Assembly (NCBI GenBank): GCA_000182565.2
Contig: KQ257453.1
Length of the DNA stretch: 64,000 nucleotides
Direction: 5' to 3' (one strand)
Source: Spizellomyces punctatus DAOM BR117
Lineage: Eukaryota
Shown: positions 18,123 to 18,920 of the stretch, piece after piece
Numbering within the stretch: position 1 is the stretch's first letter
How the letters are laid out: every line of letters starts with the position of its first letter
The notes under the pieces: generated by a model
Databases searched by the model: none
What the model was told of the DNA's origin: nothing
The model's input: the letters and a program-made list of their open reading frames with translations, nothing else
Position numbers and translations under genes: made by a program

Positions 18123-18920
18123 ATGTATTTCCACCGCGTTCTGTTGGCCACATTGGCGCTCGGTAGTGTCGCGTCTGCGAACCCGGTGCCAAAGATTGAG
18201 AACGGCCCCGGCCGCGAGCTTGAACATGTCAAGCGGGACGGAACACTGGATTCTTATGCTTGTGAAGCTCAGCTGTCTGGAATCAGCTGTAGCATTCAGA
18301 ACCCGGGATTGAGACTGAATACATGTTGTAGCGTTGGTCTCGCCTTTGTAGTTGCTGGCGGGGTTGTCGGTGGTATTGGTGCATTCCTTTACTGGACGGC
18401 AAAGAACCACGAAAGGTGGTCACGCGTCGTGGGCGGTGAAGATGGCAGCCAGAACAATACTCACCACGCGAAGCGGGCCGAGGAACTGGCAAAAATGCTC
18501 GAGGACATTAACCTATACCTGTCGGAACAAAGTAGCTTCAAGGCACTGACTGATGGGAACAGCACCACGGTTGCCCAAGCTATCGCCATCGAACCCGGCA
18601 GAGGAGTCCTCTTTGGAGAGGTCGAGGTCGACCCGAACGACACGGGTAAAAGCAAGCGTCATCCTGTACCATGGGGTGCACACTATGTATGGGCCAACAT
18701 ATGGTGGTACAACTCGGACCCTCCCATCAGCCAAGGCGGTGCTGAAGCCGCCATCCGTCGTGCTAGTGAAGAGTTGCGCAACCGGGGTATGGCTGCAGGC
18801 GGCTTTGATATCCGTAATCCATGCAACTGGAACGACAAAATGGCCGACTTTTCCCTTATTGAGACGAACGACAAAAACCATGTCGACCACTTTTCCATGT
18901 GGGACAAGAATCCTTTCTAA
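18123..18920 (+). CDS. Intronless 265-aa secreted preproprotein with three Lys-Arg sites, candidate killer-toxin-like precursor
   Basis: Signal 'MYFHRVLLATLALGSVASA'. KR ends at aa 38, 118 and 179. Hydrophobic Gly-rich helix 'VGLAFVVAGGVVGGIGAFLYW'. N-glycosylation sequons NNT, NST, NDT. TATA-like 'tataag' at about 17984. Confidence 0.8.
   Translation: MYFHRVLLATLALGSVASANPVPKIENGPGRELEHVKRDGTLDSYACEAQLSGISCSIQNPGLRLNTCCSVGLAFVVAGGVVGGIGAFLYWTAKNHERWSRVVGGEDGSQNNTHHAKRAEELAKMLEDINLYLSEQSSFKALTDGNSTTVAQAIAIEPGRGVLFGEVEVDPNDTGKSKRHPVPWGAHYVWANIWWYNSDPPISQGGAEAAIRRASEELRNRGMAAGGFDIRNPCNWNDKMADFSLIETNDKNHVDHFSMWDKNPF

Follow-up and report, generated by a model that had tools for sequence, protein, structure and literature searches.

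An intronless Spizellomyces punctatus gene with the outline of a killer preprotoxin, tentatively read as a type I membrane protein

The stretch of DNA studied here, called the window, comprises 64,000 nucleotides of contig KQ257453.1 of the chytrid fungus Spizellomyces punctatus DAOM BR117 (GenBank assembly GCA_000182565.2). At 18123..18920 on the + strand it contains an unbroken open reading frame (ORF) of 265 codons, running from ATG to TAA in a single exon, for which a preliminary description had proposed a killer-toxin-like preprotoxin. The sequence alone leaves two main possibilities for the product: a toxin-like precursor that is cleaved, or a single-pass membrane protein of an ordinary kind. 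The best explanation is tentatively taken to be a type I single-pass membrane protein restricted to the genus. The 265-residue length and the absence of introns were described correctly. Indeed, RNA reads from a run carrying the same species label (about 6/100 of the run was sampled, and 48 reads were placed on 3,001 bases) cover the ORF without any splice joint listed over it. This coverage is thin, the depth in raw reads being 0.15-1.5 over the ORF, with a peak of 5.43 at 18919-19019, followed by 0.6 at 19020-19120 and 0 at 19121-19221. The drop in depth, together with two AATAAA hexamers at 19020-19025 and 19037-19042, delimits a 3' untranslated region at 18921..19120 (+). Contigs from two RNA runs gave no match at the locus. 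The accompanying remark that nearly every gene of this genome is spliced went too far: PMC5364385 reports that 88% of S. punctatus transcripts are spliced, with 6 exons per gene, so that about one transcript in eight is unspliced. The unspliced state is that of a minority of the genes, but it is not rare.

A clustered protein database provides an ortholog, the 264-aa hypothetical protein g02089 of Spizellomyces sp. 'palustris', which is 91% identical over its full length and shares the same start and end. The ORF located downstream in the window matches SPPG_02732 of S. punctatus DAOM BR117 with 100% identity. Its ortholog in 'palustris', g02090 (87% identical), lies on the same 368,534-nt contig as g02089, and the gene order is therefore kept between the two species. 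The ORF under study is conserved no less than this Kelch/SH3 neighbor. With its weak transcription and its intact syntenic ortholog, the gene is real. In the literature, neither SPPG_02732 nor SPPG_02731, a guessed tag for the present gene, was found in any paper.

The encoded protein is made of segments of contrasting character, whose conservation was estimated from the single 'palustris' ortholog and is thus a two-sequence comparison. Residues 1-19 (18123..18179, + strand as all those that follow) constitute a signal-peptide-like N-terminus, judged by eye, in which the n-region is basic, VLLATLALGSV forms the hydrophobic core and ASA precedes N20; one of these 19 residues differs in the ortholog. 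A candidate pro-peptide follows (residues 20-38, 18180..18236) and ends with LEHVKR, the first of the Lys-Arg (KR) sites. Its three differences out of 19 all fall within 27-32, and LEHVKR is invariant. The next segment (residues 39-70, 18237..18332) carries four cysteines, C47, C56, C68 and C69, and is the best-conserved part of the protein, with 0/32 differences. Hydropathy then reveals a Gly-rich hydrophobic stretch at residues 71-91 (18333..18395), in which 6 of the 21 residues are Gly (29%) and the best Kyte-Doolittle 19-mer, residues 71-89, has a mean of 2.19. Small-xxx-small motifs (G79/G83/A87 and G80/G84) are present in this stretch, and the same kind of packing face is found in the transmembrane helices known as glycine zippers. 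Residues 92-118 (18396..18476) are basic and His-rich, contain the sequon N111 and end with THHAKR, the second KR site; a single position out of 27 differs (K94M). Residues 39-118 as a whole correspond to the putative 'alpha' piece of a preprotoxin. The acidic and Cys-free 'gamma' piece (residues 119-179, 18477..18659) includes the sequons N146 and N172, ends with TGKSKR, the third KR site, and differs at 12 of 61 positions. Finally, the 'beta' piece (residues 180-265, 18660..18917), which differs at 7/86, is rich in Trp and poor in Leu (of its 86 residues, 6 are Trp, 9 are Asn and 2 are Leu) and carries C234, the motif RRAS at 212-215 and a C-terminal NPF at 263-265.

The elements on which the toxin proposal was built, namely three KR sites, a 4+1 distribution of cysteines, the Gly-rich hydrophobic stretch and a Trp-rich C-terminal part, were all found by script. 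KR occurs only at 37-38, 117-118 and 178-179 over the 265 residues, Cys at 47, 56, 68, 69 and 234, and Trp at 91, 99, 184, 190, 194, 195, 236 and 260, six of these eight being located after residue 180. One more dibasic site, RR at 212-213, is absent from the preliminary description. The two N-glycosylation sequons it placed in the spacer, N146 (NST) and N172 (NDT), are present, but the count for the whole protein is three, the sequon N111 (NNT) of the 'alpha' piece having been overlooked. In the ortholog, all KR motifs are invariant and both RRAS and the C-terminal NPF are kept. The N172 sequon is lost there, and N146 lies inside a 27-residue core, residues 139-165, that is invariant between the two proteins. 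Conservation of the KR motifs at 91% overall identity proves little.

Homology searches returned the ortholog and nothing else of value. Pfam profiles (hmmscan, E <= 10) matched neither the protein, nor five sub-pieces of it, nor the ortholog, and no match was obtained among PDB sequences at E <= 10. Among 1.84 billion representatives searched with phmmer, the only true relative is the congeneric ortholog; a second match, to a bacterial repeat protein whose score was inflated by 17 stretches, was rejected. A word-indexed search of 5.8 billion clustered proteins also gave the ortholog only, and residues 100-265 used separately at E <= 10 gave the same result. With tblastn the ORF matched only itself in the window, and no paralog was detected there. 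The search for viral homologs suggested in the preliminary description produced 86 pattern matches in viral contigs, none of which was confirmed as a relative. In metagenome contigs, 77 pattern matches yielded one putative relative, which was discarded as a high-GC prokaryotic repeat protein of 1,319 aa picked up through the search pattern WGAHYVW. The ESM Atlas associated the whole protein with an unnamed 272-aa cluster of Ascomycota (score 0.88, 188 shared features) and residues 100-265 with DUF6736 clusters (0.78 and 0.76), the structure rows reaching a TM of at most 0.48. These scores are within (0.78 and 0.76) or near the range reached by shuffled proteins. The DUF6736 profile (PF20521) was not matched by the protein, its five sub-pieces or the ortholog in the hmmscan search at E <= 10, and 'DUF6736' was found in no paper. 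In the searches made, the protein thus appears to be a sequence orphan restricted to Spizellomyces.

Structure prediction added little to this picture. AlphaFold2, supplied with the two-sequence alignment, gave a pLDDT (predicted local distance difference test) of 31.6 for the whole chain and of 40.3 for residues 119-265. The low-confidence models contain a helix at 66-94 and, within 119-265, a strand at 188-195, a helix at 204-220 and a strand at 256-259. Foldseek searches with these models found nothing at E <= 0.001 in BFVD (twice) or in PDB, and VIA-align found none of 48,161 PDB chains at Z >= 5, the best Z being 4.3. Because models of this quality are too poor, the fold searches say nothing about killer-toxin folds, and the models give no indication of how the cysteines pair. 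Docking of residues 39-116 against 180-265 scored 0.01, against a mark of 0.34, and is evidence neither way.

The frequency of the short motifs was compared with shuffled sequences and with the other ORFs of the window. At least three KR are obtained in 1.5% of shuffles of residues 20-265, and at least three sequons in 29% of shuffles (P = 0.29), so no enrichment in sequons is seen. The motif RRx[ST] appears in 5.5% of shuffles of residues 92-265, NPF anywhere in 2.3% of them, and NPF at the extreme C-terminus in 9.5e-5. Elsewhere in the window, three of 15 long ORFs surpass the KR density of the protein, 1.13 per 100 aa, the pooled density being 0.49 (26 KR in 5,299 aa). These three ORFs carry FF, BTB and LRR domains and are therefore intracellular proteins. 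By itself, the KR density is unremarkable. The control used in this respect was a 263-aa open frame at 55506-56294 with a BTB_2 match, an intracellular protein whose KR density is above that of the ORF under study; it contains 4 KR, against 0.85 expected from its K + R content.

The question turns on the side of the membrane where residues 92-265 end up. If the protein is a type I membrane protein, the signal peptide 1-19 would be removed, a cut at KR38 in the Golgi may take off the short pro-peptide, and about 32 residues with four cysteines, forming two disulfides, would face outward. The Gly-rich stretch 71-91 would halt translocation and span the membrane, its small-xxx-small face probably driving self-association, and residues 92-265 would remain cytosolic. 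In this tail, RRAS 212-215 could be a site for a basophilic kinase and the C-terminal NPF could engage endocytic adaptors; we take the former to be a PKA-type motif and the latter an EH-domain motif. KR118 and KR179 would never meet a luminal convertase, and the sequons N111, N146 and N172 would stay unused.

Several observations argue for this topology. The protein starts with what looks like a cleavable signal and has exactly one stretch of strong hydrophobicity after it, with one Lys or Arg in the 15 residues on the N side of this stretch and three in those on its C side, which is the usual stop-transfer arrangement. The type I pattern, a signal with one hydrophobic stretch of at least 19 residues and more charge on the C-terminal flank, is found here, the signal being recognized by eye. 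A signal plus one hydrophobic stretch probably denotes a membrane anchor far more often than a secreted toxin. The parity of the cysteines is also tidy in a type I protein, with four outside and one inside, and does not call for an unpaired thiol. The best-conserved part of the protein, residues 39-70, would be the outward segment, and RRAS and the C-terminal NPF would fit a cytosolic tail. The chance-level number of sequons, of which one in three is lost in the ortholog, and the KR density matched by intracellular neighbors both favor a type I protein. The same can be said of the residues at P4 of the KR sites, which are aliphatic at 0/3 sites (H, H and K); according to bioRxiv 10.1101/2020.05.27.120113, Kex2 prefers Leu or another aliphatic residue at this position.

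Other observations weigh against a type I membrane protein. On the biological scale, the stretch 71-91, with its 29% Gly, is no more than marginal: its best 19-mer reaches +0.88 kcal/mol in a plain Hessa 2005 sum free of length, position or flank corrections, insertion by the translocon being predicted for an apparent free energy at or below zero. The make-up of residues 180-265, rich in Trp and Asn with 2 Leu in 86 aa, is odd for a cytosolic domain. The 'gamma' piece has changed about three times faster than the segments on either side of it (12/61 differences versus 10/166 over 39-118 and 180-265 together; P = 0.004 by Fisher's test), and TGKSKRHP is invariant though flanked by variable stretches. 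Three KR sites each preceded by H, K or R at P4 (LEHVKR, THHAKR and TGKSKR) are obtained in 1e-5 of shuffles, and two such sites in the tail 92-265 in 0.2%; these figures overstate the surprise, because the pattern was noticed post hoc. NPF and RRAS are likewise short motifs spotted by eye after the fact, and no family, fold or partner backs any function.

The first alternative, which is possible but less probable, is that of a Kex2/furin-type precursor cut after KR38, KR118 and KR179 in the Golgi to release 'alpha' 39-116 and 'beta' 180-265. The 'alpha' piece would be membrane-active, the 'beta' piece possibly linked to it by a disulfide and the acidic 'gamma' 119-177 discarded, the product acting on the membranes of competitors or hosts. 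Such a precursor would be convergent with the K1-type killer toxins and not homologous to them. It requires the whole chain to be translocated, because the Gly-rich stretch would be too weak to stop transfer. The Kyte-Doolittle scale rates this stretch as strong but the Hessa sum as marginal, so that full translocation is conceivable. By default, however, KR118 and KR179 would stay cytosolic when a single hydrophobic stretch comes after a cleaved signal. In favor of processing, the three KR sites stand at the borders of segments that differ in character, their number and their shared P4 pattern are uncommon in the shuffles given above, and their motifs are invariant on both sides of the fast-changing 'gamma' piece, within which the sequon N146 occupies an invariant core. 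The composition of the last 86 residues also suits a secreted product better. Conversely, the lack of any aliphatic P4, the KR density of intracellular neighbors, the weight of KR conservation at 91% identity, which is small, the suitability of RRAS and NPF for a cytosolic tail, and RR212-213, an unexplained fourth dibasic site, all speak against it. With regard to P4, a basic residue at this position can be tolerated by Kex2.

This precursor can be compared with the K1 family as characterized in bioRxiv 10.1101/2024.10.11.617966. There, homology is established by PSI-BLAST within Saccharomycotina, with alpha domains 16-28% identical to K1; the precursors measure about 340 aa, with alpha, gamma and beta of 113 (SD, standard deviation, 14), 89 and 79 aa on average; and the family further shows a LAKRxDxP consensus at the gamma/beta site, depends on KEX1/KEX2 and has an alpha domain that is toxic. 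The likeness is one of layout. A signal, a pro-piece, a hydrophobic Cys-containing 'alpha', a spacer with sequons and a 'beta' with Cys follow one another as in K1 and K1-like (KKT) toxins, KR-type borders are present at all three junctions (delta/alpha, alpha/gamma and gamma/beta), and the hydrophobic helix is of the sort that predictors would call transmembrane. The same source provides further points of agreement: the segments of 80, 61 and 86 aa come in the order seen in the K1 homologs, the residues at P1'/P2' of site 1 (D-G) and site 2 (A-E) match a small/acidic preference, the strand-helix-strand succession of 'beta' in the low-confidence model agrees with that reported for the beta domains of K1, and K1 alpha domains, predicted to be transmembrane, are nonetheless secreted.

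There are also differences. No sequence similarity to these toxins is detectable, and the organism is a chytrid instead of a budding yeast. The protein has 265 aa against about 316-340, and its 'alpha' of 80 aa, with the single hydrophobic stretch 71-91, is below the reported K1 range, by more than 2 SD from the family mean given above, for domains described there as helical, with hydrophobic membrane-active regions. PMC13211469 gives a 3+3 arrangement of cysteines in K1, versus 4+1 here, a distribution that makes an interdomain disulfide possible but leaves an odd total. At the gamma/beta site, KSKR-HPVP shares with LAKRxDxP only KR and the Pro at P4'. No homology to K1 or K1L was met in the phmmer and word-indexed searches, in libraries where the presence of K1-family members is unverified, nor was any sequence relation to a toxin family found in the searches made. 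One supplement of PMC13211469 contains none of the words 'Spizellomyces', 'Chytridiomycota' and 'SPPG'. The resemblance to K1-type preprotoxins first proposed is real in the spacing of the motifs, and the only sequence relative found is the ortholog. An uncleaved single-pass membrane protein, named in the preliminary description as an outcome that would refute the proposal, suits the sequence no less well. Judged from its sequence, the candidate may function in the manner of a K1-type toxin, but it cannot be classed with the K1 family. That the protein is a processed precursor and also an actual toxin is rather unlikely; in that case it would be a chromosomal orphan chytrid preprotoxin in which cleavage at three [H/K]-x-K-R sites yields a Trp-rich beta and an alpha that has a glycine zipper and acts on membranes.

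Other processed or membrane-bound proteins share part of this architecture. Wsc1 exemplifies the fungal type I surface proteins in which a signal and an ectodomain with Cys precede a single transmembrane helix, the cytosolic tail bearing an NPF-type endocytic signal. In comparison, the ectodomain considered here has only about 32-51 residues and is devoid of a WSC domain or Ser/Thr-rich stalk, the NPF stands at the extreme C-terminus outside an NPFxD context, and no Pfam match is obtained. Among secreted precursors, Ece1 gives rise to candidalysin, a hydrophobic membrane-damaging peptide. Kex2-processed repeat proteins (KEPs), of which many are reported in some chytrids (PMC6339444), are secreted and cleaved at several KR sites, and the present protein, if processed, would resemble them in this respect. 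KEPs, however, consist of repeated, near-identical peptide units between KR sites, whereas the four pieces here have no mutual similarity: blastp among them gave two weak alpha/beta alignments, the best with E = 5.8 and 11.5 bits. The candidate is not a KEP, because repeats are missing. The Kex2-processed pro-domain (K2PP) effectors of fungi such as SnTox3, as presented in bioRxiv 10.1101/2020.05.27.120113, also have a signal, a short Cys-free pro-piece ending with KR and a Cys-containing mature part. In these effectors P4 is typically Leu (LxxR, LSKR), against His at site 1 of the present protein, whose mature part moreover includes a stretch of membrane-spanning grade and two further KR sites, and whose host is a soil saprotroph.

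The K2PP layout leads to a second alternative, that of a secreted or cell-surface protein from which only the signal, and perhaps also the pro-peptide 20-38, would be removed, the rest staying undivided and its hydrophobic stretch being buried or associated peripherally with the membrane. The position of site 1, after a short, variable, Cys-free stretch and before the Cys-containing part, corresponds to that layout as described in the same source (bioRxiv 10.1101/2020.05.27.120113), and the marginal hydrophobicity of 71-91 on the biological scale is compatible with it. It is nevertheless unlikely: so small a protein could hardly bury 21 residues whose Kyte-Doolittle mean is 2.19, and the P4 pattern shared by sites 2 and 3 is left unexplained. 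Finally, a chance or decaying frame that is no functional protein-coding gene, to which the absence of relatives beyond the genus, the low RNA depth and the very low confidence of the structure models might point, is highly improbable in view of the intact frame of equal length in the sister species, the identity above that of the neighbor, the synteny, the unevenness of the changes from segment to segment (0/32 up to 12/61) and a transcript that ends near two AATAAA hexamers.

The preliminary description also envisaged that the gene was captured from an RNA or plasmid element. This origin is unsupported, because synteny is kept, the neighbors (nicastrin, EF-G-like, PX/PB1, Kelch/SH3, RanBP1 and DJ-1) are housekeeping genes, no viral relative was found and the GC content at third codon positions is within the range of the window (0.58, against a mean of 0.506 and an SD of 0.057 in 29 window ORFs of at least 200 aa, some of them in overlapping frames). 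The relative synonymous codon usage of the ORF points against a native origin, its correlation with seven neighboring ORFs being the lowest (0.03, versus 0.22-0.62 among the neighbors); this result has little weight because it is based on only 265 codons. An old capture event is conceivable.

The implications depend on which of the two main explanations is right. If the protein is a processed precursor, killer-toxin-like weapons would extend to early-diverging fungi with wall-less zoospores, and the delta-alpha-gamma-beta design would be convergent rather than a speciality of Saccharomycotina and of double-stranded RNA satellites. Chytrid genomes could then be mined by architecture instead of homology. 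If it is in addition a toxin, the K1-type design would have been invented independently outside Dikarya, and this would be the first killer-like toxin in chytrids. If it is a membrane protein, it would be one more lineage-specific single-pass protein and mainly a cautionary example, showing that a sequence can pass for a preprotoxin on paper with no more than a signal peptide, a single hydrophobic stretch and some KR dipeptides. A decision would be inexpensive to obtain, S. punctatus being culturable and the ORF short and without introns.

The surroundings of the gene have features of their own. The downstream gene SPPG_02732 (19301-21467) begins at 19301 with a signal-like start and has a GTAAGT intron start near 19486; its 503-aa exon gives Kelch beta-propeller matches, and its database name is that of an SH3-domain protein. 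Within this gene, at 19929-20000, seven RNA molecules whose first mate is on the - strand end at 19969, nearly all other reads of the 3-kb region being on the + strand. These read ends may be copies made by the polymerase chain reaction or an antisense end. Upstream of the ORF, about 220-400 bases before the ATG, two tandem copies of an 87-nt unit, 71% identical, occupy 17727-17900 and may represent a duplicated promoter element or the remnant of a small repeat. A 9-nt repeat of the CCTCCCCCG type at 17916-17951, in three overlapping 18-nt copies, lies just before TATAAG at ~17984 and gives rise to a poly-Pro ORF of the + strand that is spurious. Farther upstream, among ORFs of the - strand, the 10-nt unit CGTTGGCAGC is found in about four tandem copies at 16869-16908, with a looser copy at 16763.

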